Source of the DNA: Candidatus Cloacimonadota bacterium | Lineage (GTDB): Bacteria > Cloacimonadota > Cloacimonadia > Cloacimonadales > TCS61 | Direction of reading: 5' to 3' | DNA length: 64,000 nucleotides | Assembly: GCA_030600585.1 (NCBI GenBank) | Contig: JAUVLU010000001.1 | Coordinates: 57,071-121,070 of the forward strand | Shown here: positions 4,369 through 64,000 of the stretch, piece by piece | Position numbering within the stretch: the first letter of the stretch is position 1 | Layout of the letters: each line of letters starts with the position of its first letter | Made by a program: the position numbers and the translations under genes | Notes under the pieces: model-generated | Seen by the model: only the letters and a program-made list of their open reading frames with translations | Told to the model about the DNA's origin: nothing | Databases searched by the model: none

Positions 4369-4382
4369 TGAGTATGCACTCA
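4369..4382. promoter_or_regulatory. Probable TetR autoregulatory operator
   Basis: Palindrome TGAGT-ATGC-ACTCA between a minus-strand TTGACA (4408-4413) and the TetR RBS. Confidence 0.55.
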
Positions 4383-4539
4383 CCGAGCAAATGGTCAGTT
4401 GTATTTTTGTCAATTTATTTTTTTATTTTATTAGTAATTCGGCTATAACTTTATTTTTGGATAAATTAATATTTGTATAGCCAAATCACACGAATCTGTG
4501 ATGTTAAGAAATAAAAAAAAATGTACCTTTAGTTTCATC

Positions 4540-4567
4540 TTGACATAAAAAAAACAGGAGAAATATT
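4540..4567 (+). promoter_or_regulatory. Putative sigma70 promoter of dnaE
   Basis: TTGACA at 4540-4545, AATATT 16 nt downstream. Confidence 0.4.
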
Positions 4568-4631
4568 AACTTACAGATTTTGTTTTTAAAATGATTCTAA
4601 AATAAGAAAAATTCTAAAAAAAGGAATTTAA

Positions 4632-7600
4632 ATGGCGTTTATTCATCTGCACAATCACACTCAATACAGTCTTTTAGACGGTGCATGCCGTACAGATAAA
4701 ATGATTGCTAAGGCTAAAGAATTCGGGATGCCGGCAGTTGCCATGACCGATCATGGAAATATGTTCGGAGTTATCGACTTCTACAATAAAGCTAAGAAAG
4801 AAGGCATTAAACCTATTGTCGGCATTGAAACATATATAATAAATCACGAATTTGACGATACAAATGCTAAAAAAGATATTAGACATCATCTGGTTCTACT
4901 GGCTCAGAATTTGCAGGGTTATAAAAATCTGATTAAACTCTCCTCAAAGGCATATTTGAATGGTTTTTACTATAAACCCAGAATTAACAAACGTCTTATC
5001 GCTGAATACTCAGAAGGTATTATTTGCCTTTCCGCCTGTCTCAAGGGAGAGATCCCTCATTTGCTTCTAAGCGGAAACCGTCAGAAAGCTGAAGAAGTAG
5101 TAAATTTTTATAAAAATATTTTTCCACAGAAATTTTATCTCGAAATTCAGGATCACGGAATAGAAGAGGAAAAGATCGTAGCTCCGATGTTGATCGAACT
5201 TGCTAAGGACACAAATACACCACTTGTAGTAACAAATGATTGTCATTATATTAATAAAAAAGATGCGGAAGCTCACGATGTTCTTCTCTGTATCCAGACC
5301 GGCAAATCATTATCAGATTCTAATCGCATGAAATATAATACAAACCAGCTCTATTTCAAATCGGAAGAAGAGATGAGACAGCTTTTCCCAGATCAATCAG
5401 AAGCTTATGAGAACACCATGAAGATAGCTGATCAGATAGATATGGAACTTGATTACAATGATTTTCTATTTCCGAAGATCGACATTCCAGAAGGTTATGC
5501 AAATTCCAAAGAATATTTGAAATTTCTCTGCTATGAAGCTGCGGAGGTCAGGTATCCCGAAATTACAGATGAGGTAAAACAGAGGATAGATTATGAACTT
5601 TCAGTGATCAATAAAATGGGATACAATGAATATTTTCTGATCGTGAAAGATTTCTGTGACGCAGCAAGGGAAATGGGTGTTCCTGTTGGTCCCGGGCGTG
5701 GTTCTGCTGTAGGCAGCGTTGTATCTTATTTGCTGGGAATAACACAGATCGAGCCGATGAAATACGGACTCTTCTTTGAACGCTTTTTAAATCCCGATAG
5801 GATCGGAATGCCTGATATCGATATTGATTTCTGTGCTGAAGGCAGAAGTAAGATCATAGATTATGTAGTTAAAAAATATGGACGTAAAAGTGTAGCTCAG
5901 ATCATTACCTTTGGAACTTTAGGTGCTAAATCTGTTATTAAAGATGTTGCCAGAGTAATGGATCTTCCTGCAGCAACTGCCAATGAAATAACAAAACTTA
6001 TACCTTCAACCCCGCGTATCTCACTCGAAAAAGCGTTAAAACAATCTAAGGAATTTGCTGATAAAATGTCAGAGAACGATATTTATTCTTCAATCCTTAC
6101 ATATTCAAAAGTCTTGGAAGGATTGGTTCGTCATACCGGTGTTCATGCTGCCGGAGTGGTTATAGGTCCCGGAAATTTGAGCGATTATGTTCCACTTGCC
6201 ACCAGTAATCAGAAGGGAAGTGAACAAGCAGTTTTAGTTCAGTATGAAGGTAAATGGTTGGATGATCTAAAAATATTGAAAATGGATTTTTTAGGTTTAA
6301 AAACGCTTACACTGATAAAGAAAACAGTGCAGCTTATAAAAAATTCGCAAGGCATTGATGTCGATATAAATAATGTTGATATCTCTGATAAAAAGGCATA
6401 TGAATTGCTCTCTAACGGACAGACCGACGGAATTTTTCAATTTGAATCCGCCGGAATGAAAAAATATCTCTCTGCATTAAAACCCAATAAATTTGAAGAT
6501 CTTATTGCCATGGTAGCACTCTATCGTCCGGGCCCGATGCAGTTTATTGATAAATTTATAAACAGAAAACAAGGTAAAGAAAAAATATCTTTTGTTCATC
6601 AGCTTACAGAAAATTCACTTGAAGAGACATATGGTGTAACCGTTTATCAGGAACAGGTAATGCAGATCGCTCGTGAGATGGGCGGTTTGAGTGGAGCAGA
6701 AGCTGATACTCTCAGGAAGGCAATTAGTAAGAAAAAACTGAAAACGATGGAAAAACTAAAGGTCAAATTTGTTGAAGGAGCTTCCAAAAATGGAGTTAAA
6801 CCTCACGTTATTGAGACTATTTGGAATAACTGGCTTGAATTTGCCAACTACGCATTCAACAAGAGTCATGCCACAGCTTATGCCTACATTGCTTTCCAAA
6901 CTGCATATCTCAAAACACATCATCCGGTTGAATTTATGGCAGCTCTATTATCATTGGAAGATAATCCCTCCAAAATTCCTTATTTTGTGGATGAATGCAA
7001 GTCAATGGGAATTGAGGTAATTCCTCCCAATATTAATAAAAGCCAAAATGAATTTGTAGTTCAGGGAAAGAAGATCCTCTTTGGATTGCATGCGATAAAA
7101 AATGTGGGCAGCGCAGCTATAAATGCTATGGTAAAAGATAGGAATAAATCTGGAGAATATAAAACAATATTTGATTTCTGTTCACGTTCAGATACAATGT
7201 GTGTGAATAAATCTGTATTGGAGAGTCTGATCGGATCAGGCGCCATGGATGAATTGGAAGGAAACCGTGCGCAGAAATATCAGACAATTGAGAGTGCATT
7301 GGAATTTGGTATCGGTGTACAAACGGAAAAGAAACGGGGACAGATGATGTTTTTTGATGTTCTTAATGATGATGAGGAAGATGATAATTACCAACCGAAA
7401 TTACCTTCTATCCATGAATGGTCACTTCAAGAAAAACTCAAGCATGAAAAACAAGTGCTGGGTTATTACTGGTCTGGTCATCCGCTTAATCAATATCGTG
7501 AATTTATTAAACTATTTGCAAATACATCATCAAATGTTTCTGAACAAACTTTAGATAAAATTCCATCCAAGATAGCCATTGCCGGGGTAGTTTCTGAAAT

Positions 7601-28070: not shown

Positions 28071-29903
28071 ATGGCAAAGCGTATTACACTAATCGGAATG
28101 ATGATCTTAGTATTAATAGGATTAAAGGCAATAAATTCAAAACAACAAAAACACATTGAAAGAGCTCGTGATGGGCAGCACATTATTATCGCACCAGAAG
28201 AGTTCTTAACTCAAGCAAATCTATTAGCAGATTTCTATTGGAATGAATTTCAAATTGCACGTACTGTAGTAGACCAGCAGGATATATTTGATCAAATGAG
28301 CGGAGGAGTAGAAGATCCGGAAGCGATTCGAGATTATCTCATTGAATTTTTCGATGACCCATCTATCTGGATGGATAGTTCTGTTCTTTTGATGGGAAGT
28401 GGTACTGAAGAATGGAATACTCCCAGTGATAAAAACCGGATAGTTGTAATTGGATATACTGATGATGAATTTGTCATGCTGGATACAGATATTTACCCAG
28501 ATGTCCCTATCGGTAGGTATCCTGCTCAGAATATTGAACAATTAGAGCTTATTATCAATAGAAATATTCAGTATATCACAAATCCTACACTTGATTGGTG
28601 GAGAAATAAAATGCTCATCGTTGCAGATGATGAACATAAAGCAGGAAATTTAGAGGGATTAACTCCCACAAGTGGCTTAAATCATACAGCTAGAGCTCAA
28701 GAATTAGCAGAGACGTTATCTGATGCAGTTTGGATAGATCGTGTAATAGGTATAGAATATGAAATGAATACAAATGGAAATAAACCAGAAGCTGCGCATG
28801 ACGTAATTTATAATGTAAATGAAGGTAGATTGATTTGGCACTATATTGGTCATGGAAACGAAGATGTACTAGGTGATGAGGACTATTTCAGAGCTTCTAC
28901 TCAACTTCAATTATTACAAAATACCGATCATCTTTCTCTATTCACTGCAGCTTCAAGTAGAGTTGGAAATTTTACTTCTTTGGAGTTTGATTGTATGGCA
29001 GAACAATTCCTTACCTATGAGGATGGTGGAGTAATTGCAGCTATTACACCAAGAGAATGCGCAAGTGGTAGTAGTAATTGTATTCTATTTCTAGCGTTTT
29101 TCCAGAATATTATAAATGATTATCAATATCTGGGTGCTGCTCTTCTTGATGCTAAAATAAATAGTGGAACATCAATTATTAATAGCAAGTTGTATAATAT
29201 ATTAGGTGATCCATTACTTTTTGTGAATCCTCCACAACGTGATGAGAATATTACAATTACTGGAAATCCTGAGATATTGTTTTATAATGATGATATTTCA
29301 ATTTTCGGACAGCTTCCTTTCATTGATTATTCTCAATGTGAATTTAAGGCATTTGAATCAGAATATGACTGTTTTTATACAAATACATTAAATGGAGCAA
29401 CTTATGAAGTAGACTATACAAAATTTGGTGAGCCTTATTTTGAAGAAGAAATTACAATTGCTGGTGATTATTATGAAACATCATTCACTGTTACATCTGA
29501 TATTCAAACCGGTGAAGAAGCTAGAATGATTAGCTATGTTAATGGAGTAGAAGGTGATTTTGTTCAATATTTATACCCAATAACAATCTCAGATGGAACA
29601 TCATCACCAGATTTACCGGAATTGCCACCCAGTTTAGTTGCTTCCAATTATCCCAACCCATTTAATCCAACGACTACAATTGCATATTCTCATCCAAATG
29701 ATTGTAACATTGAACTTAAAGTTTATAACAATAAAGGACAAATAGTAAAAATTTTAGTTAAGGAAGAGCAACTTGCAGGATTATATGAAACTGTTTGGAA
29801 TGGTACGGATGAAAATAATCACCCAGTTGCTAGTGGAATATATTTCTATAGATTAGAAACTGAAAGCAAAACTGTAACAAAAAAAATGCTGTTGTTAAAA
29901 TAG
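28071..29903 (+). CDS. C25 (gingipain/PorU-like) domain protein with C-terminal sorting domain; catalytic Cys apparently replaced by Ser
   Basis: IGRYP, WRNKMLIVADD, HYIGHG, TAASSRVGNF, ILGDP; CTD NYPNPFNPTTTI...KMLLLK. Confidence 0.85.
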   Translation: MAKRITLIGMMILVLIGLKAINSKQQKHIERARDGQHIIIAPEEFLTQANLLADFYWNEFQIARTVVDQQDIFDQMSGGVEDPEAIRDYLIEFFDDPSIWMDSSVLLMGSGTEEWNTPSDKNRIVVIGYTDDEFVMLDTDIYPDVPIGRYPAQNIEQLELIINRNIQYITNPTLDWWRNKMLIVADDEHKAGNLEGLTPTSGLNHTARAQELAETLSDAVWIDRVIGIEYEMNTNGNKPEAAHDVIYNVNEGRLIWHYIGHGNEDVLGDEDYFRASTQLQLLQNTDHLSLFTAASSRVGNFTSLEFDCMAEQFLTYEDGGVIAAITPRECASGSSNCILFLAFFQNIINDYQYLGAALLDAKINSGTSIINSKLYNILGDPLLFVNPPQRDENITITGNPEILFYNDDISIFGQLPFIDYSQCEFKAFESEYDCFYTNTLNGATYEVDYTKFGEPYFEEEITIAGDYYETSFTVTSDIQTGEEARMISYVNGVEGDFVQYLYPITISDGTSSPDLPELPPSLVASNYPNPFNPTTTIAYSHPNDCNIELKVYNNKGQIVKILVKEEQLAGLYETVWNGTDENNHPVASGIYFYRLETESKTVTKKMLLLK

Positions 29904-51308: not shown

Positions 51309-52947
51309 ATTTTATCATTAACATTTTTCGTGATTGCACTGTCTCTCCCCCATTTACTAATCTATAGAAATATACACCGCTACTAATAGATTTATCATTA
51401 GCATCCTTTCCATTCCAGATTATAGAATTTTCTCCGATTATATCTTCAAGTTGATAGCTTTTCACCTTTTGCCCTTTTACATTGTATATTTCTATTTGGG
51501 GATCAATAATGTCATCTGCCAAAGAATAAGATATGGTTGTGGATGGATTGAAGGGATTAGGGTGATTTTGTTTAAGAGAAGACATTATGCTTGGACCAAG
51601 ACTGATATTTCCAGTTGAGGAGATAAGAAGAATTTCACTATTATTTGATTCATTCCATTCATCCCAATTTTGTTCAGCAAGAAAATCATCACCATTCCCA
51701 GAATCCAATATGATTTCAATTGTTACTTCTTCATTCAACCAGGTAAAAGTAACATTATCTTCTCTATCCATTGTACTAACAAATACATCTCCATCAAGTA
51801 TCCCATTATATTGATGAGTTGCCAATTCAACATCATTTTTTTTTATGCTTACCTGGAAATTATCAAGAATCATTATATTGCTATCATTTGTAAAAGAGTA
51901 AAATATATATACGGTTTCACCGTATTCAAAATCGGAGTATTGATGAGGGTACAGTTCGTTCGGATTATCTGTTACTATGATAGATGCCCCAATTTGCATA
52001 TATTCATTCCAACATAGATCTGGTTCTTCAATAAAAGTATAAAACATATCAAAAAACTCAGCTCTTTGGTAATAAGTTGGATACCAACCATTATATTGAC
52101 TATCATGACGATCGGAGCTATGCGTACTAAAATTAGGACCGTCAGCAGTACAAATTACTGCATGTTCGTCTGGATCTGATTCCGATCCCAGAATCATAAC
52201 ATCACCTGGTGAAAAGTTATAAGGAACGGTCTGGGCTGTACGCCATTTATATTGATCAATTTCATAACCCCAGCGAACCTCAGTTTCATCTGAATCAAAT
52301 TCAAAATACACAGCATTTCCACTAAATGGTTCTTCATCCCACCAATTAGATGGGAAATTCTCACCTGAATAATAATAAGTGGTCTCATCATCTGTGGCAT
52401 ATAAGAAATCATAACCTGCTTCAATTTCCAAATCGGTGAAATGTAAACAAATTTCATCAGCTTCTGGTGGTGCATAAAGATCAAACCAATACTCTTCGTT
52501 ATTATAATATGGATGATTTGTTGATTGGAATGTTGGAGATATAGTTTCCCAATTCCACCAAGAGGCAGTATATCCTTGAGACCATCCTTGATTTATAAAA
52601 TAACTTCTCATATTATCAGATAATATAAAGAAATTCATATAAGCTGAACTCGAACCAGTTAATTGATCCTCTGATATTGGCACTCCTCCGGCTTCCAGGC
52701 ATTGTGAAACAAAATGAGTGCAGTCGTTGCCATCTATGTAACCTGCATTTGTTGGATTTCCAGTAGGATCTTCGTGATTATAAATAAATTTTGAAATATT
52801 ATCCCATTGTATTCCTTCATTGGCACCAATGGATCTCCCCGCATATTTTTCGGCATATCTATCCATTTGGTCAACATTCAACCATGCCTGACAGGTTAAT
52901 GCATAACATACAATTAGACAGGAAATTAATACTTTAATAAGCTTCAT
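51307..52947 (-). CDS. Secreted amidase_6-like Cys-His protein with inserted CUB-like domain and C-terminal sorting domain
   Basis: GNDCTHFVSQCLEAGG; CUB-like STNHPYYNN...LHFTDLEIEAGYDFLY...FDSD; PGDV...EHAVI...HSSDR; E.NESNN; CTD. Confidence 0.75.
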   Translation of the reverse strand: MKLIKVLISCLIVCYALTCQAWLNVDQMDRYAEKYAGRSIGANEGIQWDNISKFIYNHEDPTGNPTNAGYIDGNDCTHFVSQCLEAGGVPISEDQLTGSSSAYMNFFILSDNMRSYFINQGWSQGYTASWWNWETISPTFQSTNHPYYNNEEYWFDLYAPPEADEICLHFTDLEIEAGYDFLYATDDETTYYYSGENFPSNWWDEEPFSGNAVYFEFDSDETEVRWGYEIDQYKWRTAQTVPYNFSPGDVMILGSESDPDEHAVICTADGPNFSTHSSDRHDSQYNGWYPTYYQRAEFFDMFYTFIEEPDLCWNEYMQIGASIIVTDNPNELYPHQYSDFEYGETVYIFYSFTNDSNIMILDNFQVSIKKNDVELATHQYNGILDGDVFVSTMDREDNVTFTWLNEEVTIEIILDSGNGDDFLAEQNWDEWNESNNSEILLISSTGNISLGPSIMSSLKQNHPNPFNPSTTISYSLADDIIDPQIEIYNVKGQKVKSYQLEDIIGENSIIWNGKDANDKSISSGVYFYRLVNGGETVQSRKMLMIK

Positions 52948-54182
52948 TATTCACCTCCTATTTTTCTAAATAAGGGTTCATCGAGTTTATACTTCTCATG
53001 ATCTACTTTTTGATTATAAGGATAAAATCTTGCTCGTTCATAAAAATAAATTCTTTCTTCTCTGCTTATCCTGTCTTCTTTAATTTCACTATTCTCAAGA
53101 TCATACACTATTGGTTCTCCAGTTATTATGAAAGGATTAGCTAATTCCTCAAGGTATATTGACATTTTCTGCCATTGTAAATCTGGTTTGTATTGTGCAG
53201 GATATCGACTGACATTTAGCATTTTGTATGCAGTTAATTCATAAAAAGCATCAAGATATTCTCTACGTGAATAGGACGGATCATTTATGATGTTCCACAA
53301 TTCACTTATCCTTTTTTCTATTTCATTTGGTGGAATTAACCCTACAAATTGTATATTAACGTAATCTTGAATACCTTTACACTTGGATTTCATTAATAAA
53401 CCGATTAATTCTAGGATATCATCATATTCTTGATCATTATCATATCTTCGGACTTGGATTCCTCCAACCCAATTAAAAATCATACTCTCTATTGGTGAAT
53501 AAAATGCTACATCCGTTGTTTCAATATCCTGTGCTTGGATTATTTGATTTTTTAGGAATTCATAACTTCTTAGATTTTTCCCGAATGACAGATTAATAGC
53601 ATGCAGATGAATCTGAAAACGGAGATTTTGATTGGTATCATTAAGCTTGTTTTGCAAATAATACTTTGCTCCTTCATGTCCATTCCATGCATAGAGTTTT
53701 ATGGAATCCAGATATTTATTTGCTAATTTTATGCAAGGTTCATTTTCAACGATATAAATTAGAAAATTATACAAGTTCTCATCATATTTGGCAGGATAGG
53801 CGTAACCTGTCAGCGCAAATGCCTCGATCAATCTTGATCGGAAACCAGCTTTACCGGCATCAGTAAAATCATACTCGTTTCTGTTTCGATGACTTTCATA
53901 TTGCATTTCTTCGAATTCTTCTTTCGTAGGATTCAATAGTTTTATGTAATTAAATTTGATCTCCTCTCCCCTTTTCCACCACCTAGTTAAACCACTATTT
54001 GCTTTATCTAAATACCCAAGCATAATCTGATCGACGTTTTTTCCTTGTTTTTGTTTAGCCTTGTTGTATTCGAAATATGTTTCAAATTTCGAATAGTTTT
54101 TTTCATCATTTTCTATTGAAAATAATGGGATATTGCATACTAAAACAATAAGCACACTTATTATAATCCATTTTGTTTTCAT
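52947..54182 (-). CDS. Exported helical hypothetical protein, translationally coupled to the amidase-like gene
   Basis: Signal peptide, 411 aa; stop overlaps next start (TAATG); RBS AGGAG. Confidence 0.7.
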   Translation of the reverse strand: MKTKWIIISVLIVLVCNIPLFSIENDEKNYSKFETYFEYNKAKQKQGKNVDQIMLGYLDKANSGLTRWWKRGEEIKFNYIKLLNPTKEEFEEMQYESHRNRNEYDFTDAGKAGFRSRLIEAFALTGYAYPAKYDENLYNFLIYIVENEPCIKLANKYLDSIKLYAWNGHEGAKYYLQNKLNDTNQNLRFQIHLHAINLSFGKNLRSYEFLKNQIIQAQDIETTDVAFYSPIESMIFNWVGGIQVRRYDNDQEYDDILELIGLLMKSKCKGIQDYVNIQFVGLIPPNEIEKRISELWNIINDPSYSRREYLDAFYELTAYKMLNVSRYPAQYKPDLQWQKMSIYLEELANPFIITGEPIVYDLENSEIKEDRISREERIYFYERARFYPYNQKVDHEKYKLDEPLFRKIGGE

Positions 54183-54407
54183 GTTTTCTCCTAATTATTT
54201 GTTTAAGTTAACAGTTTCCAGCCAATAAATAGATCGGCTTTGTTTAATTATCGAAATTATTTTTCTAATCCCCTTAATAAGCCAAAGGCTTACAAGTCCC
54301 CTTTGTGAAGGGGGACATGACAATAAACTTCTAACTCATAACTTCTAATTCCTCACTGTTAAGATTCATGCATGATTACCTCCTAATAAATAATTTTGCA
54401 TATCAAT

Positions 54408-54433
54408 ACATTAAACATTAAACATTAAACATT
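54408..54433. repeat. Heptamer tandem repeat (ACATTAA, about 3.7 copies)
   Basis: acattaa acattaa acattaa acatt. Confidence 0.8.
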
Positions 54434-54600
54434 CATTCATTTTGTCACTATTAATTTAAATTGCATATAGTAAATGCCGAACTGATTGCTTCAGTCCTAC
54501 AATAATTTACACTTCATTCACAATTCGTTAAGATTCCTCTTTGTATAAGACTGACAAGTGCACAAGAAAATCTTCTGTTGATAAATTAAATATCAACAGT

Positions 54601-55212
54601 TTATTTTATGAAAAGGTTATAGCCAATATAAATTTGGGCATTTGTGAAAGTCCAATTTTCATCATAATCAGGGGTGGCGAATATATCAAATGATGTACCA
54701 ACTTCAAATTTACCAAGCTTAATACCAATTTTAATTGGTGTTCGAAAGTAAAAATTCGAATCAGAGTTCCCGAATACTTCAAAATTCATACCAGGATTTA
54801 TCGAACCCTCAGCATAGAAATAGTTAAATAGACTCAATGTTTGTTCTAAAATGGATAATTCGAACATATTGAAACAATAACCATTTGAATTATCTTCTGT
54901 TACTTCAAAAATTGTATCTTCCGGATATTTGAGTGGATTTAAACTATTATAAAACCCAAATTTGCCAATTTTACCAATCTTCTTTTTTATTGAAACTTCA
55001 AAATTGGTATAACTTGAAAAATAGAAATTATATCCAACTCCTATGGATTTGTACCAATTCCCATCATTCCAAAAAACTGTAATTCCATTAGGAACAGGAA
55101 TTATAATATCAGTACTGCAATATTTTAATTCTACCTTATAATTTGTTGAAGCAAAAGAATTTCCTGTTAATACAATTAGAAGGATAGATAAAAGCATGAT
55201 TTTTTTTAACAT
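54601..55212 (-). CDS. Exported probable small outer-membrane beta-barrel
   Basis: Signal peptide, alternating aromatic strands, terminal QIYIGYNLF. Confidence 0.6.
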   Translation of the reverse strand: MLKKIMLLSILLIVLTGNSFASTNYKVELKYCSTDIIIPVPNGITVFWNDGNWYKSIGVGYNFYFSSYTNFEVSIKKKIGKIGKFGFYNSLNPLKYPEDTIFEVTEDNSNGYCFNMFELSILEQTLSLFNYFYAEGSINPGMNFEVFGNSDSNFYFRTPIKIGIKLGKFEVGTSFDIFATPDYDENWTFTNAQIYIGYNLFIK

Positions 55213-55287
55213 AATTAAATCTCCTTATGATTTATTAGTTTTTATGATTCACATTACCTGTCTATCATAAATATATTTCTCATTCAT

Positions 55288-56430
55288 TCATTCAGTTGGT
55301 GGCACATATTCAAATTCATAATCACATCTGATATAAGAGCCACACCAATAATAGCTTCCTCTATTATAACTTTCTACCGTCAATCCATAACCACCCTCTT
55401 CAAAACCAACATTGTAAAGGAACCCATTTTCTATTATTTCTTCATTGTTTGAAGTCCAATCCCACTCAAAAACCTCTATAGCACAATAATTATGATAACC
55501 ATTCATTTGTTCATGGCAGTTACTAGTAATTAATTTATTTGTAGTTTTTTCGCGAGATATGCTACAATAACTTTTGCGTCTAAATCGTTTATAATTATGA
55601 GAAGATGAACCTAATCTTCTTACAACCATTTCAGCTTTTCCACCTAACCAAGATTCTAAACTTTTTGGTCTTCTTACACATATTTTTGTTAAGTATATTC
55701 TCCCAGTTGTACTACGATTATTATTTAAAGTATTAAATTTGTTCAAATCATAATTATCCATAGATAATTCTTCGAATAGAAGTAACTCATTAATACCAAC
55801 TACTGCTAAAGGATATTCTGGTTCATAATCACTGTCAGATATATCCATAATTATATTGTTACCTTCATTATCATATACATTAATATTTTGGATATCCATA
55901 TCGTCAACTAGTTTGCCATTCTCAAATATAGGTATATAAGTTACTTGTATTGGAATATTAGGATCGTATTCTTTAAAACAATGCATATACAACTGTAAAT
56001 AACAGATTTCATCTAATGCTCTTATGAATTCCTCAGGTGATTCACCATCAGGAGGTAAATTTTCAACTTCTACTTCAACTAATTCTCTAATAGATAAACT
56101 ATCAACTTGATAATATGAAATTGTTGACCATAATACAAAGGCTTCACCATTTACATCTCCATCGGCATCTACTATTTCTAAATTTGTATTCATCTCATTG
56201 TAGAGAATAGTAGCAAAGTTCTCATTTTCAAACAAGTATGGTAAAACTGATGCAAATTTTTTCATAGTTTTTTCAGTTTTAACTAAATCAATACTGAATC
56301 TTCCAAAACTATACAGAAACTCATTCTCCTCATCAACAATTTCAGTAATTGTTTTACTTGAGCAACTTATTAATAATATGCCCCCACTAATAATTGTCCC
56401 CATAACGATTAATGTGAATATTTTTCTCAT
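55288..56430 (-). CDS. Lipoprotein, possibly DUF3103-like, with Cys-rich C-terminal domain
   Basis: Lipobox LLISC; P.YPLAVVG.NE; ESWLGGKAEM; FEWDW. Confidence 0.6.
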   Translation of the reverse strand: MRKIFTLIVMGTIISGGILLISCSSKTITEIVDEENEFLYSFGRFSIDLVKTEKTMKKFASVLPYLFENENFATILYNEMNTNLEIVDADGDVNGEAFVLWSTISYYQVDSLSIRELVEVEVENLPPDGESPEEFIRALDEICYLQLYMHCFKEYDPNIPIQVTYIPIFENGKLVDDMDIQNINVYDNEGNNIIMDISDSDYEPEYPLAVVGINELLLFEELSMDNYDLNKFNTLNNNRSTTGRIYLTKICVRRPKSLESWLGGKAEMVVRRLGSSSHNYKRFRRKSYCSISREKTTNKLITSNCHEQMNGYHNYCAIEVFEWDWTSNNEEIIENGFLYNVGFEEGGYGLTVESYNRGSYYWCGSYIRCDYEFEYVPPTE

Positions 56431-56449
56431 TTTTGTCTCCTCTTTTTTT

Positions 56450-56659
56450 TTATTTCAATGGAATAATATACAATACTCCATCAATTCTTATTGCTTGATA
56501 TTCTATACTTTCACAAATGATTATGATTTTTTCATATTCGATTCCCAAAAGTTCTTTGTAAGTTATTATAGGATATGAGGAATCATTTATAGAATTTAAT
56601 TGACTAATAAGGAATGTTGATAAACTTAACAAAATTAAACATGAGAATTTTCTTATCAT
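56450..56659 (-). CDS. Small exported hypothetical protein
   Basis: RBS GAGGGG, hydrophobic N-terminus, co-oriented with the lipoprotein gene. Confidence 0.5.
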   Translation of the reverse strand: MIRKFSCLILLSLSTFLISQLNSINDSSYPIITYKELLGIEYEKIIIICESIEYQAIRIDGVLYIIPLK

Positions 56660-56750
56660 GTCCTAGCCCCTCTATTATAAAGACAAAAAAAGATAATATT
56701 TGGGACGAAATGATGGCTAACTTATATAAGACTAAGTAATTGGAGATAGT

Positions 56751-57722
56751 ATGAAAAAAAATGATCGTATTTATACAGATATAATTAATTCAGCCTTTCA
56801 TTATTCTAAAATGATTTTAAAGAATGATGATGAAGCCAGAGATATATCTCAAGCTGTAGCTATAGAATATTTTATGAATATTAACAAATGTAATATCAAT
56901 AATTTGAATGGTTGGATATTTATAATAACTAGAAATAAATGTTACAACTATATCAAGAAAAATAAAAGAAATATTATTTCCGGTTCAATTGAATTTAATG
57001 AAAAGACATATGTTGAGCCTAATTTTGAAGAGAACAATTGCAACAATGATGATATGACCGAGATGATCAAAGCACTTCCATCAGATGTATTAAAGGTAAA
57101 AGAAAAGATGATGTTAATAAAATATTATAACAATAACTGTGAATATAAAAAATTATGTGCAAGATATTCAATTAAAATCGATTCAATGAGAAAGAAAATA
57201 TATCGATTAAAAAATGAAGTAATTGCATATAATAAAAGAAAGAATGGATACAATAATACAATAAAAATTGTTGGACCACGTTTAAGAGAAAATATTATGA
57301 ATTTTGTACGAAAATTTAATAATTGTTGCAGAAATGATGATTTTTCAAATATGCAGCAATACTTAATTGAATGTATAATGCCTTCTAAAATTCCAAGTAT
57401 TTGTATAAAAAAAATTATTCATATTAACATTGAATATATAGAAGTTAAAAAGTATGATCTTTGTATAATCTACTATGATAATTTCGGGAAAGTAAATAGC
57501 TTTTCAACCATTTTCAAAATTTCAAAATCCAATATTATTCATATACTTGAATTTCCAAAGCTAAGTAAAAAAATATTTAAAGCGAATGTTAAAGCTTTAC
57601 CTAAAGAAGTATTGGGAAAAATCCTTCCGGATAAAAAAGGAAAATATCATTATACTTTTGATGAAATTATTGGAATGATAAAAGAACATACAGAATTAAC
57701 AACAGTAACGAATAGTTACTGA
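56751..57722 (+). CDS. ECF-type sigma-70 factor with C-terminal extension
   Basis: Region 2 DEARDISQ...NGWIFIITRNKCYN; region 4 YKKLC...SMRKKIYRLK; about 150-aa extension. Confidence 0.75.
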   Translation: MKKNDRIYTDIINSAFHYSKMILKNDDEARDISQAVAIEYFMNINKCNINNLNGWIFIITRNKCYNYIKKNKRNIISGSIEFNEKTYVEPNFEENNCNNDDMTEMIKALPSDVLKVKEKMMLIKYYNNNCEYKKLCARYSIKIDSMRKKIYRLKNEVIAYNKRKNGYNNTIKIVGPRLRENIMNFVRKFNNCCRNDDFSNMQQYLIECIMPSKIPSICIKKIIHINIEYIEVKKYDLCIIYYDNFGKVNSFSTIFKISKSNIIHILEFPKLSKKIFKANVKALPKEVLGKILPDKKGKYHYTFDEIIGMIKEHTELTTVTNSY

Positions 57723-57795: not shown

Positions 57796-59763
57796 TTACT
57801 TCATCAACAACATTTTCTTTGAAACTTCAGAAGAAACTGTCTTCATTTTAACAAAGTACATTCCGCTGGAAGTAGAATTGTCATTGTTGTCTTTTCCATT
57901 CCAGACAAAGTTTGTATTTTGCACAATTTCGTTATTCACAATTGTTTTAACAAGCTGTCCCTTTATGTTGAATATCTTAACCGATACAGGTTGCTGAATA
58001 TCATTCTCATTAATAGAAAGAGCAATATTAGCTGTCGGATTGAATGGATTTGGATAAACAGAGATAGAGTTAACAGCAATCACATTAACTGTGTTATCAT
58101 CAGAATCTGTTGGTCCCATTCCATTAGGACCGCCATAAGCACCCATATCATTTCTTGTTCCATCGATGTCGTTGTATATAGCATCAGGATTACCGGTATC
58201 TATACAAGGTGAACCTTCTTGCAGCCACCACGATGCAGTAAGTCCGTTATATCCTGTTCCATCTCCGGCAGTCGGTGCAACAAAGAGCGGGTCTGCATCG
58301 ATATTACCCTCACCTGCAAATCCACCTGTTACGCAACTATATGTAATTATCGGTGTACTTTGTATGAAATGGATCTCACCATTATCAATAATGATAGAGT
58401 TAGTTATTATTGGAACTGAATTTAAAAGGAACATCAGATATGATGTTGAATTAGTTGATAAATTATTCGCTATAGTATTGTTAGTTAAAATTGCATTAGA
58501 ATCATTTTTGAAACTGAATGCTCCCCACTGTCCTGTGTTATTTACAATAGCATTGTTTACTATCTCTATAGTAGATGCAGTACATCTTATACCACCTGCA
58601 CAGCCTGAACTTGTATTATTGGAAATAATGTTTTGTGAAATCAGAACATTATCAGATCCTACGATCTCAAATGCTGCGGCAAGTGAAGAACTATTATTAT
58701 CAAATATCTTACATCCGATAATATCAACTTTGGAATTACCTTCTACTTTAATTGCAGAAAGATTGGCGTTGGATATCTCGCAGTTAGCAAGAAGATTATC
58801 TTCTTGAGTATTAAAGAATCTTATACCATTCCATGAAGTTTCTGAATCGAAAATAATAGGTTCACTTCTTGTAGATGATGCATCTGCAATTAGAAGTCCG
58901 TTAACTGTGAATTGTACATCTGCAGCAAATTGTAATTCAACACCTTCGTTGATTATTAGTGCATCACCTTCAGCAATAACAATATCACCGGAAATTATAT
59001 AAGGGCTAAAATCTGATACCCAAGTACCGGAAAGATTTCCGCTGACTGAAGAGCCATCAGTAACCGTGATGTAATCCTCAATAGTAATTTCAGCGAATTC
59101 TCCATCAACCTCAATTTTAAGAGTTACATCAAATACTCCAGGCTCTGTATAGACATGGAAAGGATTTTCCTGAGTACTGTCAAAAATCCCATCACCATCA
59201 AAATCCCATTCCCAGGCATCAATTACTCCTGTTGGTGAACTTGACATACTTGTAAACTGTACACCGAGATTTAAAGGACCAATTTGTACATTAGATGCTA
59301 TACCAGCACTAAGCCCGAAATTTGCAATAGCATTATCAAGCGGACCTGAAATTCCACTAACGTTATTGTTACCATAATAAAGTTCATTTTCTGGTCCTAC
59401 CACTGCAAAAAATGGGACATATCCATTTCCCCAATCCCAATATATCGCTCCAAGACCTGACCAATTTGGATGTGTATGTGTTGCTCCCCAATCAGTTTCC
59501 GATAAGAAATACGCCTGTCCACCTATTTCATATTGTTCCCATAAAGATTGATAAGTCGGCGCCGCCGATATACAGCCACCTCAACCAGAACTTCCCCAAA
59601 AGAAAACAACTGCTTTTCCAGAAGCAGTTAATTCATAAATTGAATGATTCTCACCATTACTATCAATCCAACTGACATCATTTACAATGTCTCCAACCTG
59701 ATATTGTGCGAACACACTAACAGAAAGGATTACTAAAAAAAACACTACTAATATCTTTTTCAT
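57796..59763 (-). CDS. Predicted secreted selenoprotein, 655 aa: signal peptide, thioredoxin/peroxiredoxin-like domain with UxxC (Sec61), PKD, right-handed beta-helix, C-terminal sorting domain
   Basis: ORFs 59581-59763 and 57796-59403 share a frame separated only by TGA 59581-59583: YQVGDIVND.SW.D..G...SIYEL...GKAVVFFWGSSG-U-GGC-ISAAP...GYVPFFAVVGP; PKD WEWDFDGDG..DST.ENPFHVY..PG; CTD VYPNPFNP...KMLLMK. Confidence 0.85.
59551..59571 (-). promoter_or_regulatory. Candidate bacterial SECIS hairpin
   Basis: Minus strand ATA-TCGGC-GGC-GCCGA-CT-TAT; G-starting apical loop 17 nt after the UGA. Confidence 0.65.
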
Positions 59764-59855
59764 TTTTCTCTCCTTTTAAGAGTCGGCTTTCGGGTATCCG
59801 AAAAACGATCTCCATTTTTTATTTAATTAATATCTGTCCCATGAAGTGCGTAAGC

Positions 59856-60632
59856 CTATTTCATCAGGATCATTTTTTTTATTTCCGAAAATTTTGAGTT
59901 ATTCAATTTATAGAAATAGACACCTGAAGAAACCGGTTGATTGCTTTCATCGGTACCGTTCCAGATTATGGAGTAGCCGACTCCGTCGGCAAAAAGCGGC
60001 GAGGGACTCGCCGACTCCAAAATATCCAAAGTTTTTACTTTCTGCCCTTTAAGATTATAAATTTCGAGATTCACAAAATCGGAATTTTGTGGTACAGAGA
60101 AAGAAATCGTTGTTCCAGGACTGCGACCGGCTCCTGACGGCTTAAATGGATTCGGATAGTTTTGCATGAGTTTATTAGCGTAAACAATCTCATCATCCGC
60201 GCTTACATTATCAGCAGTATTAAATGTGAAATCTAAACTGATAGGTTCAATAAGATCACCTTCATCCAGAATTATACTAAATGGAAATCCACCGGTACTG
60301 GTAACTGTCACAAGGATATGGATCTCTTCAAATTCTCCTGGTGCAAGTGGTAACGGAACCGCCCAATTTGCCATGAAACACGCACCGGATGAATTACATA
60401 TACTCAAATTCCAGTCGTTGGGTACGTTCTCATCGGAATAAAACAGAGTATAGGTTTCAGTAGTAGAACCAATGTTTGTAATTGTGATCCATTCCGATTC
60501 ATAAACATAAGAACCATTTGTAGCAAATGAATCTCCAATGATATCCATGTCGAATGGGATATCAACTTCCAATTCTGCAAAGACAAGGCTTATACTCATT
60601 ACTAAAAATGTGAATAGGATTATTTTTTTCAT
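59856..60632 (-). CDS. Secreted Ig-like domain protein with C-terminal sorting domain carrying two palindromic in-frame inserts
   Basis: Signal peptide; ITNIG, WNLSICNSSGACF; CTD NYPNPFKP[SGAGRSP]GTTISF...[ESASPSPLFADGVG]YSIIWNG...KMILMK. Confidence 0.85.
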   Translation of the reverse strand: MKKIILFTFLVMSISLVFAELEVDIPFDMDIIGDSFATNGSYVYESEWITITNIGSTTETYTLFYSDENVPNDWNLSICNSSGACFMANWAVPLPLAPGEFEEIHILVTVTSTGGFPFSIILDEGDLIEPISLDFTFNTADNVSADDEIVYANKLMQNYPNPFKPSGAGRSPGTTISFSVPQNSDFVNLEIYNLKGQKVKTLDILESASPSPLFADGVGYSIIWNGTDESNQPVSSGVYFYKLNNSKFSEIKKMILMK

Positions 60633-60663
60633 TATTTTTATCTCCTTTTTTCAACGGTTTTCC

Positions 60664-60869
60664 ATTCCCAACTGGAAAGTTAGGAATGAGAACGAAAGAA
60701 AACCCTGCGATCGCTTCTCTCAATTTATCATCTATTTAGCAATTATTCAACTCCTTCCTAAGCTTCTGCTTGGGAAGGAAATAAAACATGAAGCTTTTGC
60801 TTCATAACGAAATAGAAATTTCGTTTAATATTCTATTCCCAACTGGAAAGTTAGGAATGAGAACGAAAG
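60664..60869. repeat. 35-bp exact direct repeat (60664-60698, 60835-60869) within a REP cluster extending to about 61000
   Basis: attcccaactggaaagttaggaatgagaacgaaag twice; also ccttcctaagcttctgcttgggaagg and tgtctttctga...tcagaatgaca. Confidence 0.85.
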
Positions 60870-61067
60870 TTGTCTTTCTGAGGAATCTTATAGCTTTACC
60901 CTCGAAGAATCTAATGAAATTCTTTTTGCTTTTCTCCCTTTCCTTTCGATTGAGATTCTTCCTGAGAACTACGTGCATGATACGTCAGAATGACAATTTA
61001 TTTTCCTTTCCACTTCTATATTCCAAACCATTCGCAAGGTTCATTAACCATTGCGGAGGTCGAATTT

Positions 61068-62480
61068 TCAAAACGATGTTACAATATCGAGGCGAACTCC
61101 ATCAAATTCTGCCTGATTTTTACAAACACCATTACGACAAACTAAACCGCCCTTTTCTTTTCCAATAAAAATTCGAACATCGGTATTCCATAAAATAGAA
61201 GCTGCAAATTCACCACCAATCCAGAATTCTCCATCGTTGCCTTCATTTGATTCGCCGAGTTGATTTTCTACAGTTATGGAAGCTGAATAATTTCCAATAG
61301 AAACATCGGTTTGCAATCTTGGTTCGAAGTGAGAAATATTCTCAGCACCGTTATCTTCTTCTTTATATTGATATTCTACTTTTATCATAACTGGAATATT
61401 TTTCAACATAAAATCAAGGCTCACGGCAGGTGTAAGTTCCTGATACCAGTTGTTTCCACTTTCGGTATTGATCTGCTCGAGAGCACCGTATTCTGATTTT
61501 ATAGAAAGATTATCAAAATCGTGTTTGAATTCACAATAAAGGTCAGATTGACGAACCTTGAAATTACTGTTCCAGCCTTCTGCATAATTTAATACAAATT
61601 CATTTTCATAGTTTGGAAGGAAGCGGATCTCGCCCATAAGTCCTTCTTCATCTTTGCCCGGATCCCATCCGTGTTCAAGCTGCTGTCCGCTATGATTTGC
61701 CATAGGCAGATCGGTAATTTTCGTATCAAAATTCTCATATTTTTTATAAACGGTTAGAAGTGTAAATTTACCAAGATAAGCAGTAGCGTTGGAATATATC
61801 CCTGTTCCACTCACATTATTTTCATCATTGCTTTTTGCGTACTCGGCATTGAGATCAAGCATATCATTGAAATAGTTCACTCTTCCTGTAAAAATATCAC
61901 ATTGATTATCTTCAAATTGCTGCTGCATTATATAACCACCACCAATTCTGAGATTATCTTTCAGGTTAAGATCAGCATCGACAGCAGCGATTTTGTCATT
62001 CTCATTTTCATCATCTACGTTTTTCATCAGTCCGTAAAAAATTTGAGCCTGCACTTTATCGAAGAAAGCTTGTGCATATCCGCCGGTGAGCCGAGAATCA
62101 TCCTCAAAATCGGTATCAAAATAATTATGCATTACCATTCCGCTGCCGATAACAGCATCGTAAGTTCCTGCTTTAAGGAAGAAATGATCAGATTCAAATT
62201 GCAGGAAATATTCATCGAAATAATTCTCATCTTCTTCAATACCTGTTTGCTCTGCGCTAAGGAAACGATCATATTTTGGTTTGTAATAATTGTATTTTAC
62301 ACCGGCAGACAGGTTATTATAAAATATTTGAAGTTGGAGTTTATCGGAGAAATAGTTTTGATATTCTTCACCAATATCACGTGTAATAGTTTGGAATTCA
62401 TTTAATATTGAGTAAGATATTTCTGCAAAAGCTGATGCAATAACCAGAAGAAAGAAAGCTGTTAATAATAATTTTTTCAT
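61068..62480 (-). CDS. DUF6029-like outer-membrane beta-barrel with C-terminal Cys pair
   Basis: Signal peptide, KAGTYDAVIGSGM, DEEGLMGE, GKEKGGLVCRNGVC...F.GVRLDIVTSF (terminal Phe). Confidence 0.75.
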   Translation of the reverse strand: MKKLLLTAFFLLVIASAFAEISYSILNEFQTITRDIGEEYQNYFSDKLQLQIFYNNLSAGVKYNYYKPKYDRFLSAEQTGIEEDENYFDEYFLQFESDHFFLKAGTYDAVIGSGMVMHNYFDTDFEDDSRLTGGYAQAFFDKVQAQIFYGLMKNVDDENENDKIAAVDADLNLKDNLRIGGGYIMQQQFEDNQCDIFTGRVNYFNDMLDLNAEYAKSNDENNVSGTGIYSNATAYLGKFTLLTVYKKYENFDTKITDLPMANHSGQQLEHGWDPGKDEEGLMGEIRFLPNYENEFVLNYAEGWNSNFKVRQSDLYCEFKHDFDNLSIKSEYGALEQINTESGNNWYQELTPAVSLDFMLKNIPVMIKVEYQYKEEDNGAENISHFEPRLQTDVSIGNYSASITVENQLGESNEGNDGEFWIGGEFAASILWNTDVRIFIGKEKGGLVCRNGVCKNQAEFDGVRLDIVTSF

Positions 62481-62488
62481 ATCTATCC

Positions 62489-62998
62489 TTACTCTTCGCT
62501 TTCTTCATTTTCTTCAGAAAATGTTTCCAACCATTTTATTATTATTTCTTTATAATGTTCTTCATCACCGCGTTTGTAACCGGTGTGATCATAAAGTATC
62601 TCGCCGTCCGGTGCGATTATTAAAGTGCGTGGGATATTCACGATATTGAATTGCTTTTGCACAACTTTTTTAGAATCAAAGAGAGTATGGAATTCATATT
62701 TATGTGATTTCACTTCAGCTATTGCTTTCCGTTTGGTTCTTGGTTTATCGGTGCAGATGGTTACAACATTCACATTTTCATATTCTTTATGTAATTCATC
62801 AAGTTTTGGCAATGCCTTTTTACATGGAACACACCAGCTTGCCCAAAAATCTAAAATTACAAGTCCTTCCTGCTGAAAATCAGAAAGCTTAACCATCTTG
62901 CCTTTCATATTTTCCAATTGGAAATCTTGTACTTTTTCTGCTGCAAAAAGTGATGCAGCAAACAGCACAATTAGTATTAAAGAAAAAAATCTGTTCAT
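62489..62998 (-). CDS. TlpA/ResA-like periplasmic thiol-disulfide oxidoreductase
   Basis: Signal peptide, DFQL, LDFWASWCVPC, cis-Pro NIPRT. Confidence 0.92.
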   Translation of the reverse strand: MNRFFSLILIVLFAASLFAAEKVQDFQLENMKGKMVKLSDFQQEGLVILDFWASWCVPCKKALPKLDELHKEYENVNVVTICTDKPRTKRKAIAEVKSHKYEFHTLFDSKKVVQKQFNIVNIPRTLIIAPDGEILYDHTGYKRGDEEHYKEIIIKWLETFSEENEESEE

Positions 62999-63011
62999 TA
63001 TTAATTCCTTA

Positions 63012-64000
63012 TTATCTTATAATATTTATTTCAATTACATTATATATTGTACAAGTATCGCCATTATAATGATCTTCTAAAGTTTGTATCCAGAGAACGA
63101 GAATCAAGTCATCAGGAAGCTGCTGATAACCCGATGCAAGTTGATCAAGACCGGAAATAGTGAACGTAACAAGTTCTTGCCGATTTAATGAAGATATATC
63201 AACGGTTTCACGCTTGAGTTCAATATTATGAAGATTTTCTCCGCTGTGATTTTGATGTTCCGTACTTAATTCTTCCATTAACACAGCCACAAGTTTTAAG
63301 TTATTTGTAGAAATTGATCCATCCAGTTCGATCTGCACGGAACCATTTAAAGTAGTACCGTTAATATCGGCTTGTGCATCTAAAAACTTAGCCGTTAACG
63401 GCTGTTCCATTAGTGGAACTATAACATCTTCAATATCCTGCTGGATAGTTACGGAAGAACCTGTGATAATTTCAGCATTACCATTTATTACAGTATAAGG
63501 CAGGTAACCATGATTTTCATAATATATAAGCAAAGGTGTGTTCCCGGGGTCTAAAATATCATTAATATGATATTCTACATAAGAGAATCTACTGCCGTAT
63601 TCTTCTTTAAGATTGTGAAGAGCTTCTTCAACGATCGGGCAGTTTACACAGGACATTGCTGTAAACATTTCGACCACTACATTACGCATATTAGCCTGAT
63701 TTCCATAAAACATATAGGAATTATCAGTTTCGATTAAAACATCAGATATGATAGTATCCATAAATGTTGTTTCTGAATCCGGGCTTGTAACCAGCAATCG
63801 CCAATCTATTGCAAAAGCATTTGTATCAATTATTACAGCTTCAAATGTTAAAGGCATATTTACATAAGAAAAAGCTTTATAAAAGTTTTCAACATCAGAT
63901 TTAATTAAGCCGTTGTTACTGTAATTATCGTGAAAGAATTCCATTATGTTAGTAACATCTTCTTTTGGCAGAATGGTTTCAATGGAATCTGCAAAAGTAT
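63012..64000 (-). CDS. Omp28-related thioredoxin-fold protein with an N-terminal NTF2-like segment; starts beyond the right edge
   Basis: RNVVVEMFTAMSCVNCP, VEYH, LPYTVING, LKLVAVLME, ILVLWIQ; frame open from 63944 to the window end. Confidence 0.8.
   Translation of the reverse strand, partial: TFADSIETILPKEDVTNIMEFFHDNYSNNGLIKSDVENFYKAFSYVNMPLTFEAVIIDTNAFAIDWRLLVTSPDSETTFMDTIISDVLIETDNSYMFYGNQANMRNVVVEMFTAMSCVNCPIVEEALHNLKEEYGSRFSYVEYHINDILDPGNTPLLIYYENHGYLPYTVINGNAEIITGSSVTIQQDIEDVIVPLMEQPLTAKFLDAQADINGTTLNGSVQIELDGSISTNNLKLVAVLMEELSTEHQNHSGENLHNIELKRETVDISSLNRQELVTFTISGLDQLASGYQQLPDDLILVLWIQTLEDHYNGDTCTIYNVIEINIIR

Follow-up and report, generated by a model that had tools for sequence, protein, structure and literature searches.

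A gene cluster of cysteine- and selenocysteine-pair proteins in Cloacimonadota that may relay reducing equivalents from DsbD to the cell surface

How thioredoxin (Trx)-type proteins on the surface of Bacteroidota and their relatives, such as HBP35 of Porphyromonas gingivalis, stay reduced has to our knowledge not been explained, and the question is raised anew by a cluster of genes for exported cysteine (Cys)- and selenocysteine (Sec)-pair proteins in a Candidatus Cloacimonadota bacterium. The cluster lies at the end of a 64,000-nucleotide stretch of contig JAUVLU010000001.1 (assembly GCA_030600585.1; hereafter the window, G000:C19:57071-121070) that belongs to a 2.58-Mb genome of 96.8% completeness and whose contig runs on for 5.5 kb past the window end. 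Five genes, all on the minus strand, encode an Omp28-like lipoprotein, a TlpA/ResA-type periplasmic thiol-disulfide reductase, a DUF6029 outer-membrane beta-barrel, a beta-sandwich protein with a sorting tail of the type IX secretion system (T9SS) and a selenoprotein. Each product carries a Cys or Sec pair motif, so that the five co-oriented exported proteins described in the initial annotation are all present with their motifs. Chance does not account for these motifs: relatives keep each Cys pair without exception or almost so. Our tentative reading, which we rate at slightly less than an even chance, is that the cluster serves as a dedicated, DsbD-fed thiol-disulfide relay of the cell envelope that would reach the outer membrane and, through the barrel, the cell surface, with passage through the barrel as the step that we infer. 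The hypothesis is well motivated and has the support of synteny, gene fusions and invariant residues.

The first three genes follow each other closely: that of the Omp28-like lipoprotein (367 aa, minus strand) extends from window position 63012 beyond 64000 to window-equivalent 64115 (G000:C19:121185), that of the TlpA-like reductase (169 aa, with a signal peptide and a WCVPC motif) occupies 62489-62998 on the minus strand and that of the barrel (470 aa, PF19494) occupies 61068-62480, also on the minus strand. A look at the sequence beyond 64000 for dsbD, as had been proposed, revealed the gene of a three-domain DsbD (G000:C19:121186-122865, 559 aa) directly upstream of the Omp28-like gene, whose start abuts the dsbD stop codon, and the gaps from dsbD over the Omp28-like gene and tlpA to DUF6029 amount to 0, 13 and 8 nt. 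Beyond a structured intergenic gap of 435 nt (60633-61067, minus strand) lie the genes of the beta-sandwich protein (59856-60632, minus strand; 258 aa, CNSSGAC at C79/C85) and, after another 92 nt, of the selenoprotein (57796-59763, minus strand; 655-aa open frame, UGGC with Sec61).

The barrel, through which the proposed relay would pass, matches PF19494 with 62.3 bits (cut-off 27), mainly over profile positions 1-285 of 538, and its orthologue in Melioribacter matches the model over the full length with 198 bits. The C-terminus of the window barrel reads ...GGLVCRNGVCKNQAEFDGVRLDIVTSF, including the motif CRNGVC, and residues 440-461 (codons at 61098-61163, minus strand) form the glycine-flanked hairpin GKEKGGLVCRNGVCKNQAEFDG with Cys448 and Cys453, both of which are among the 28 columns that are invariant across 21 sequences. 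A HMMER scan of 1.84 billion representatives with the barrel gave 200 matches at E <= 1e-3, 150 of which were listed; leaving out 15 fragments that lack the C-terminus, all 135 remaining listed homologues have a Cys pair before the last strand, as CxxGxC in 134 of them and as CAGRVC in one. A lack of conservation of these cysteines had been named in the initial annotation as grounds for giving up the relay idea, and that objection falls away. We therefore define the C-terminal CxxGxC pair as the hallmark of the DUF6029 family, and the window barrel carries it within a GG-x-x-C-x-x-G-x-C hairpin before the terminal strand. Across 109 full-length homologues with a mean column identity of 17%, only six columns are invariant (G105, G114, G440, C448, C453 and G461), and four of them belong to this hairpin, which is basic, has invariant glycines on both sides and is the sole loop of the barrel with a fixed length. 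Amphipathic strands and variable loops fit a many-stranded barrel ending in F, and the topology predicted from amphipathic strand and indel patterns puts the Cys hairpin on the side of the long variable loops, between the penultimate and the last strand. A comparison of the barrel profile with PDB sequences returned spurious RecA matches only. We also note a KSB1 record (L063:7944-9347) in which a frameshift, a stop codon or an assembly error has broken the DUF6029 gene into two open reading frames (ORFs) of 169 and 289 aa.

The TlpA-like protein matches the Pfam families AhpC-TSA (79.8 bits, 2e-22) and Redoxin (64.1 bits, 2e-17) and scores below the cut-offs of all the named NCBIfam equivalogs (80.8 versus 170 bits for ResA, 58 versus 230 for TlpA, and likewise for StoA and DsbE), so that its membership in TlpA/ResA/DsbE holds at the superfamily level only. 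At loci outside Cloacimonadota, 70 of 71 TlpA-like ORFs keep the WCxxC motif. Three representatives from separate 50%-identity clusters (P0015, P0026 and P0027; 641-648 aa) are TlpA::DUF6029 fusions composed of a signal peptide, a TlpA domain with WCVPC or WCAPC, a linker of ca. 20 residues and a barrel with CRNGVC, and five genomes (L175-L179) carry the fusion gene in the usual gene context. As far as sequence can tell, these fusions tie TlpA physically to the N-terminus of the barrel, which the fused TlpA also places in the periplasm. That a TlpA-type reductase works at the DUF6029 barrel is well supported, since it is encoded beside the barrel and, in some genomes, fused to this periplasmic N-terminus.

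The neighbourhood of the barrel is widely kept. PF19494 was found in 177 of the 201 Cloacimonadota genomes sampled (139 of the 151 high-quality ones), and 105 of 401 sampled Bacteroidota genomes hold the barrel Cys motif. Among 18-kb barrel regions from 20 genomes with eight Cloacimonadota family codes (f1-f7, f12/f14), 19 have a DsbD-family gene, the Omp28-like gene, TlpA and DUF6029 in this order on one strand, with L057 missing the Omp28-like gene only; a TlpA orthologue directly precedes DUF6029 in all 20 loci, and the DsbD-like protein is shorter or more divergent in three. Used alone, the barrel protein retrieved one close locus, and a 13-sequence barrel sub-alignment led to more than 558 related loci, from which we took the best 80 for a search with hidden Markov models (HMMs) built from the Cloacimonadota proteins. 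By record title, these 80 loci come from Calditrichaceae, KSB1, Gemmatimonadota, Ignavibacteria/Melioribacteraceae, Eisenbacteria, Glassbacteria, WOR-3, Edwardsbacteria, Bacteroidia, Chitinophagales and Saprospiraceae. Where at least 700 nt of upstream sequence were available (75 loci), tlpA immediately precedes the barrel gene in 56 cases and is part of the cluster in 62, including six loci recognised by inspection (L070, L088, L112, L123, L127 and L133). An Omp28-family gene was found on the same strand within 6 kb of the barrel in 65 of the 80 loci after local HMM iteration, and a beta-sandwich gene with the motif W-x-S-S-L-C-F-x(2,3)-C-[FY]-[AP]-P in 56 of 80 within the same limits; all five beta-sandwich proteins checked from these loci have T9SS tails. 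Melioribacter roseus, for instance, encodes a CDPC lipoprotein, an Omp28 protein with T9SS tail (CSPC), a T9SS-tail beta-sandwich protein (CFTFC), a TlpA (WCKPC) and the full-length DUF6029 barrel. At Bacteroidia/Chitinophagia-type loci without an adjacent TlpA, a canonical Omp28 lipoprotein (PF11551 at E 1e-19 to 1e-24, with CVNC or CINC) directly follows the barrel in eight of ten cases. Gene order is hence conserved throughout Cloacimonadota, and the TlpA-barrel pair across several lineages of the Fibrobacterota-Chlorobiota-Bacteroidota (FCB) group. We further observed a DUF1684 gene (E 1e-42 to 1e-48) after the DUF6029-Omp28 pair at all four Bacteroidia/Chitinophagia-type loci scanned (L139:10413-11015, L135:10421-11032, L140:10316-10954 and L121:10423-11022).

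What lies on either side of the barrel in the proposed chain can be read from the other genes of the cluster. The Omp28-like lipoprotein has a lipobox Cys followed by DRF and a CVNC motif in a Trx-like segment; C17, R19, F20, C156 and C159 are invariant in 20 orthologues, and outside Cloacimonadota the CxxC is kept in 73 of 79 Omp28-like ORFs. Its family profile finds thioredoxins in the PDB down to E 8e-6 and, weakly, the HBP35 structure 5Y1A of P. gingivalis (E 0.02). We take this CxxC motif to be catalytic, as the Omp28-type motif in the heads of the neighbouring beta-helix proteins can open with either Cys or Sec. The family label given to the lipoprotein at first stands in part: the protein resembles canonical Omp28 lipoproteins in its lipobox, its Trx-like segment with CVNC and its association with DUF6029 in the genome, but it scores below the curated cut-offs (34.9 versus 150 bits for NF033782, 24.8 versus 200 for NF045500), and Pfam Omp28 (PF11551) gave no match to it at E <= 0.01. 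In view of these scores we call it Omp28-like and not a certified member of the family.

The 258-aa protein consists of a signal peptide, a beta-sandwich with C79/C85 (CNSSGACFM) and a T9SS type A sorting domain (TIGR04183, 31.5 bits, cut-off 23), and 17 orthologous domains all share N31, C57, C63 and F113. In 16 of the 20 Cloacimonadota loci, the gene right after DUF6029 encodes a homologue, either in a short form of ca. 245 aa or in a long form of ca. 450 aa that is extended at the N-terminus by an Omp28-like domain; the fusion of Omp28-like domain, beta-sandwich and T9SS tail occurs at ten Cloacimonadota loci and one Ignavibacteria locus. Comparison of the beta-sandwich with the alpha domain of DsbD by hhalign gave E 5.8e-4 over 36 columns and E 3.8e-4 over 17 columns at probabilities of 29-36%, while four control profiles reached E 0.2-0.6. 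The motifs CNSSGACFM and NYCDETGNCYPG align specifically with the alpha-domain active site, FCDEGGTCFMP, of the DsbD encoded next to the window, though the motif sits mid-domain in the beta-sandwich and near the domain end in DsbD. Pfam DsbD_N did not match the beta-sandwich domain, a PDB profile search with it gave nothing meaningful, and its homologues are annotated only as T9SS-tail or hypothetical proteins. As a separate observation, the tail of the 258-aa protein (59856-60230) has an unusual insertion, DILESASPSPLFADGVGYS. Upstream of dsbD, a gene for a 660-aa CarboxypepD_reg/T9SS protein encodes a tail (L009:9392-9745) with some 60% identity to that of the 258-aa protein, which suggests a recent exchange between the two.

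The last gene of the cluster encodes a signal peptide and a TlpA/AhpC-like UGGC head, followed by PKD and right-handed beta-helix domains and a T9SS type A tail (TIGR04183, 35.4 bits, cut-off 23); by BLASTP, its head is similar to the TlpA encoded in the window (E 4e-7). The UGA codon read as Sec lies at 59581-59583 on the minus strand. A search with the 135-aa head in the 201 genomes, with stops read through, gave 51 matches at E <= 2e-21 in 45 genomes, each with exactly one in-frame TGA, and the TGA is kept in 51 of the 52 head matches at E <= 1e-18. A signal peptide and the motif FWG-x-U-x-x-C-x-x-AAP are found at all 30 selenoprotein loci that were fetched, and a ten-base core, CGGCGGCGCC, that begins 13 nt after the UGA is identical in all 30 despite a low-GC coding context. 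This core belongs to a hairpin resembling a selenocysteine insertion sequence (SECIS), with an 8-bp stem and an apical GGC loop, at 59553-59571 (minus strand); 84% of the cells of this stem are paired, and its modest covariation of 0.176 (0.116 in shuffles, with one of 500 as high) lies above all slid controls. RNAalifold favoured another stem of 5 bp without covariation, and the single-sequence fold at the Sec site is unexceptional (z = -1.3). The genome encodes SelB (339 bits), SelD (352 bits) and tRNA-SeC, with SelA present only as a fragment at a contig edge. With the TGA conserved in 51 homologues, a conserved hairpin behind it and SelB, SelD and tRNA-Sec encoded in the genome, the UGGC protein is by sequence criteria a genuine selenoprotein, and none of the curated NCBIfam selenoprotein models matches its head. 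Two further observations touch on Sec in this group: the genome's SelD match (G000:C15:7500-8423) itself has one in-frame TGA, and the one head relative without TGA (G122:C145:17314-17703, E 1e-18), which is part of an open frame of 2266 aa, is possibly a form with Cys.

The grouping of the Ig-like and selenoprotein genes with the first three also recurs in relatives, where they share the neighbourhood of the cluster. A hand comparison of positions showed that 17 of the 45 genomes have a selenoprotein copy on the barrel contig at a distance of no more than 12 kb; the remaining genomes, one of them closed, have it on another contig or far from the barrel. The selenoprotein heads precede varied T9SS passengers with PKD/beta-helix, CarboxypepD_reg, fn3 or P-domain modules. 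Conversely, PKD/beta-helix/T9SS proteins occur near the cluster in nine of the 20 Cloacimonadota loci and two of the five fusion loci, and eight of nine of their heads that were read are Omp28/DUF1223-like with the motif VVGEVFT-x-TW-[C/U]-x-Y-CP and not TlpA-like. Heads with CxxC are found in L041 (copy 2576-4870), L043, L052, L056 and L060 and heads with UxxC and an in-frame TGA in L051, L055 and L175 (UGYC, UGYC and UPTC), with the ninth head (L041 copy 4916-7159) left out of this tally. Those of L051, L055 and L056 match NF045500, "Omp28-related selenoprotein", at E 1e-17 to 1e-23 and below the cut-off, and L050 carries the same TlpA-like Sec head as the window. Two different predicted (seleno)thiol heads thus share one position on one kind of surface protein.

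The two downstream proteins are T9SS type A cargo in that their sorting domains score above the cut-off and the genome encodes the secretion machinery, with SprA (505 bits in total) and a PorU-like protein (385 bits, just under the cut-off of 420); at least 47 further matches in the genome are limited to the C-terminal-tail part of the PorU model. The SprA gene (C19:34578-39005) lies on the same contig upstream of the window, and a 614-aa open frame at window positions 28143-29537 (G000:C19:85213-86607) matches the middle of the PorU sortase model with 176 bits.

The electron source of the proposed chain would be DsbD, which matches DsbD_N (26.5 bits, cut-off 25), DsbD_TM (81.5 bits) and Thioredoxin_7 (65.2 bits) in Pfam and has the N-terminal Ig-like Cys-pair domain, the two-Cys membrane domain and the C-terminal Trx domain with CxxC that define a DsbD; the motifs of its three Cys-pair regions (FCDEGGTC, MPCVLP, TPCTAP and WCLTC) are visible in the sequence. 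It is the sole DsbD_TM match in the genome, and that this only DsbD moves electrons across the inner membrane is well supported. Searches that were positive in control genomes found no match to DsbA, DsbB or VKOR and none to Cytochrom_C_asm (CcmC/CcmF/CcsA) in the 96.8%-complete genome, so that the usual jobs of DsbD and TlpA, fixing DsbA-made disulfides and cytochrome c maturation, are not found here. In two of the genomes with a TlpA::DUF6029 fusion (L175:4399-6473 and L176:4444-6434), three genes take the place of three-domain DsbD beside the cluster and encode a stand-alone DsbD-alpha-like protein (141-148 aa), a 290-aa Fer4_5 (4Fe-4S) membrane protein and a second TlpA, which carries a lipobox in L175; L176 retains a full DsbD farther upstream. 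Electrons may enter by way of this three-gene set as an alternative. Past the window end, upstream of the cluster, lies the gene of a TrmB-family regulator (L009:11378-12259 on G000:C19); L056, L175 and L176 have an orthologue immediately before dsbD or the DsbD-alpha-like gene, and the other 22 loci searched gave no orthologue.

The 435-nt gap between the barrel and beta-sandwich genes is highly structured (z = -6.15), with two copies of a 39-nt hairpin repeat 171 nt apart (60660-60698 and 60831-60869) and a terminator-like hairpin at 60787-60806. It had been described as filled with repetitive extragenic palindromic (REP) elements, a label that we reject: no copy of the repeat exists elsewhere in the 2.58-Mb genome with up to five mismatches allowed, and the repeat is therefore not a dispersed REP element. 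Relatives with the short-form protein have only 11-36 nt at this place, so that the longer gap here is a local insertion. No Rfam family matched anywhere in the window at gathering thresholds.

Taken as a relay, the cluster would work as follows. Reducing equivalents brought across the inner membrane by DsbD would reach TlpA, and the glycine-hinged Cys hairpin of the barrel, mobile or inserted into the lumen, would take them over from TlpA at the lumen or the periplasmic mouth and pass electrons on to the Omp28-type Trx modules on the outer face, the DsbD-alpha-like beta-sandwich and the selenocysteine head. That the remaining partners are Trx-fold modules with (C/U)xxC and a Cys-pair beta-sandwich is well supported, and in many lineages they have T9SS tails and should therefore be displayed on the surface. 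If the likeness of the beta-sandwich to DsbD-alpha is meaningful, the chain would, like DsbD itself, be built of Trx folds and hairpin Cys pairs in alternation. The PKD/beta-helix surface protein would most likely handle the terminal acceptor, extracellular disulfides or oxidants. The stricter proposal that DUF6029 is an outer-membrane counterpart of the DsbD membrane domain, with its hairpin relaying TlpA electrons to surface (seleno)thiol modules, seems to us possible but doubtful.

Several points weigh against such a relay. We know of no precedent for thiol-disulfide exchange across the outer membrane. The hairpin is predicted to be either extracellular or folded into the lumen and is not obviously within reach of a periplasmic TlpA; as the topology puts it outside while TlpA is periplasmic, the relay would need a hairpin folded into the lumen. 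Among the genomes with the motif, 174 of Cloacimonadota and 105 of Bacteroidota, no Sec variant of the barrel cysteines was found, though Sec variants do occur in the Trx-type partner proteins; two candidates, a Bacteroidota match with several stops and a Cloacimonadota match with TAA, were discarded because both look like pseudogenes or fragments. The lipoprotein of the window falls short of the Omp28 model cut-offs and its surface exposure is putative, five of ten long-form surface proteins have no CxxC in their Omp28-like domain, and the likeness of the beta-sandwich to DsbD-alpha is confined to the motif level over 17-36 columns. Finally, TlpA is not adjacent to the barrel at Bacteroidia-type loci, and DsbD is adjacent only in Cloacimonadota, with none beside the barrel in the best 80 other loci.

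Alternatively, the barrel could be an outer-membrane translocon, dock or anchor for the Omp28-family lipoprotein and its surface neighbours, with DsbD and TlpA confined to the periplasm, where they would keep the cargo and the barrel cysteines reduced or "charge" the cargo before export, and with no electrons crossing afterwards. Barrels encoded beside their cognate surface cargo are known elsewhere, as in the Slam and SprF/PorP types. The barrel and the Omp28-family lipoprotein are indeed the most widespread pair of the cluster (65 of 80 loci), also where no TlpA is adjacent (eight of ten Bacteroidia-type loci), and a TlpA fused at the periplasmic N-terminus would sit at the channel entrance. 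Yet many of the Trx-type partners have T9SS tails and hence their own export route and stay in the cluster all the same, the invariant Cys pair and flanking glycines of the barrel are left unexplained, a surface enzyme with a selenocysteine head would be limited to a single turnover without recharging, and no oxidising Dsb system was found in the genome that would call for periplasmic counteraction. We consider this explanation rather unlikely but worth keeping in mind. It is less probable still that the Cys pair of the barrel is a structural disulfide stapling an external loop of a non-redox barrel, either Wzi-like and associated with polysaccharides or a porin, for whose maturation alone TlpA would be needed and beside which the other genes would be thiol-rich by chance. 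The predicted extracellular position of the hairpin and the missing Sec variants of its cysteines agree with such a staple, whereas we know of neither a Cys hairpin nor an association with TlpA as features of Wzi. The available text of PMC9603273 reports an HHpred similarity of DUF6029 to Wzi-barrel-like proteins, which are 18-stranded, and suggests a role in polysaccharide secretion. No polysaccharide export genes, however, are found in the window cluster or among the scanned Melioribacter cluster genes, DsbA, DsbB and VKOR to form the disulfide are not detectable in the genome, and a reductase would hardly be fused permanently to a substrate that it serves once. That four kinds of Cys/Sec-pair proteins come together across distant lineages is also well beyond coincidence.

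A purely periplasmic pathway for reduction or oxidant defence, running from DsbD over TlpA to Trx-like clients in the manner of ScsB/TlpA/peroxiredoxin systems, with the barrel and T9SS genes co-regulated but outside the electron flow, would match the known periplasmic roles of the DsbD and TlpA families, and oxidant defence is plausible in what is apparently an anaerobe without an oxidative Dsb system. We nevertheless regard it as improbable in the face of TlpA being fused to the barrel itself and Trx modules being fused to T9SS tails, and with neither a peroxiredoxin nor a methionine sulfoxide reductase in the cluster. A thiol pathway for cytochrome c maturation or copper-centre assembly of the ResA/CcmG/TlpA-Sco type is scarcely credible: the best NCBIfam matches of the TlpA-like protein (ResA, StoA, TlpA and DsbE, all below cut-off) lean this way, but the cluster has no heme-handling or Sco gene, and we rejected a role in cytochrome c maturation for want of a Cytochrom_C_asm match in the genome.

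Among known systems, DsbD pathways (DsbD to CcmG/ResA/TlpA/DsbC) have in common with the cluster a three-domain DsbD, a WCxxC reductase of the TlpA/ResA type with signal peptide and, in the proposed chain, alternating Trx and Ig-like Cys-pair modules; they differ in that the partners here are a Cys-pair barrel, Omp28-type Trx lipoproteins and T9SS-displayed proteins, while the usual clients were not found in the genome. In ScsB/TlpA/PprX-type systems, a DsbD-family transporter feeds a TlpA-like protein for envelope protection, without an outer-membrane barrel, surface-displayed modules or selenocysteine. Closest in logic are the MtrCAB-type porin-cytochrome conduits, in which a periplasmic redox protein, a barrel and a surface redox lipoprotein are encoded together to carry electrons across the outer membrane. 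The contact between TlpA and the barrel, in comparison, is supported by gene fusions only, the carriers here would be thiols and a selenol instead of heme, the barrel itself would hold a redox centre, and the two systems have no sequence relation. The nearest experimental precedent is HBP35 of P. gingivalis, a thioredoxin-motif protein exported to the surface by its C-terminal domain as T9SS cargo that binds hemin and reduces insulin in vitro in dependence on two cysteines, according to the available text of PMC2907840. In that text, it is a single protein without a described electron supply at the surface, unlike the surface Trx modules here, which are encoded together with DsbD, TlpA and a Cys-pair barrel (PMC2907840). 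In the literature searched, comprising articles exclusive of their supplementary files, no paper gives, judged by title and abstract, an account of the cluster, of a DUF6029 function beyond the similarity to Wzi or of T9SS-displayed selenoproteins.

Next to the cluster, a low-GC block (52947-57722; 23-30% GC compared with 33-40% in the cluster) abuts the end of the selenoprotein gene and contains three ORFs without a Pfam match and one encoding a 323-aa protein that matches Sigma70_r2 only.

For the biology of these bacteria, the cluster suggests that they carry reducing power to the cell surface. It offers a concrete candidate for the means by which surface Trx-type proteins are kept reduced, made of parts that are widespread and linked by gene fusions, and gives the DUF6029 and Omp28 families a role that can be tested, all the more as the same gene set is found in cultivable organisms such as Melioribacter roseus. 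It also defines a new head of surface selenoproteins that lies outside the curated NCBIfam models. If the relay exists as proposed, many bacteria of the FCB group would have a thiol-based path for electrons from cytoplasmic thioredoxin to the exterior of the cell.

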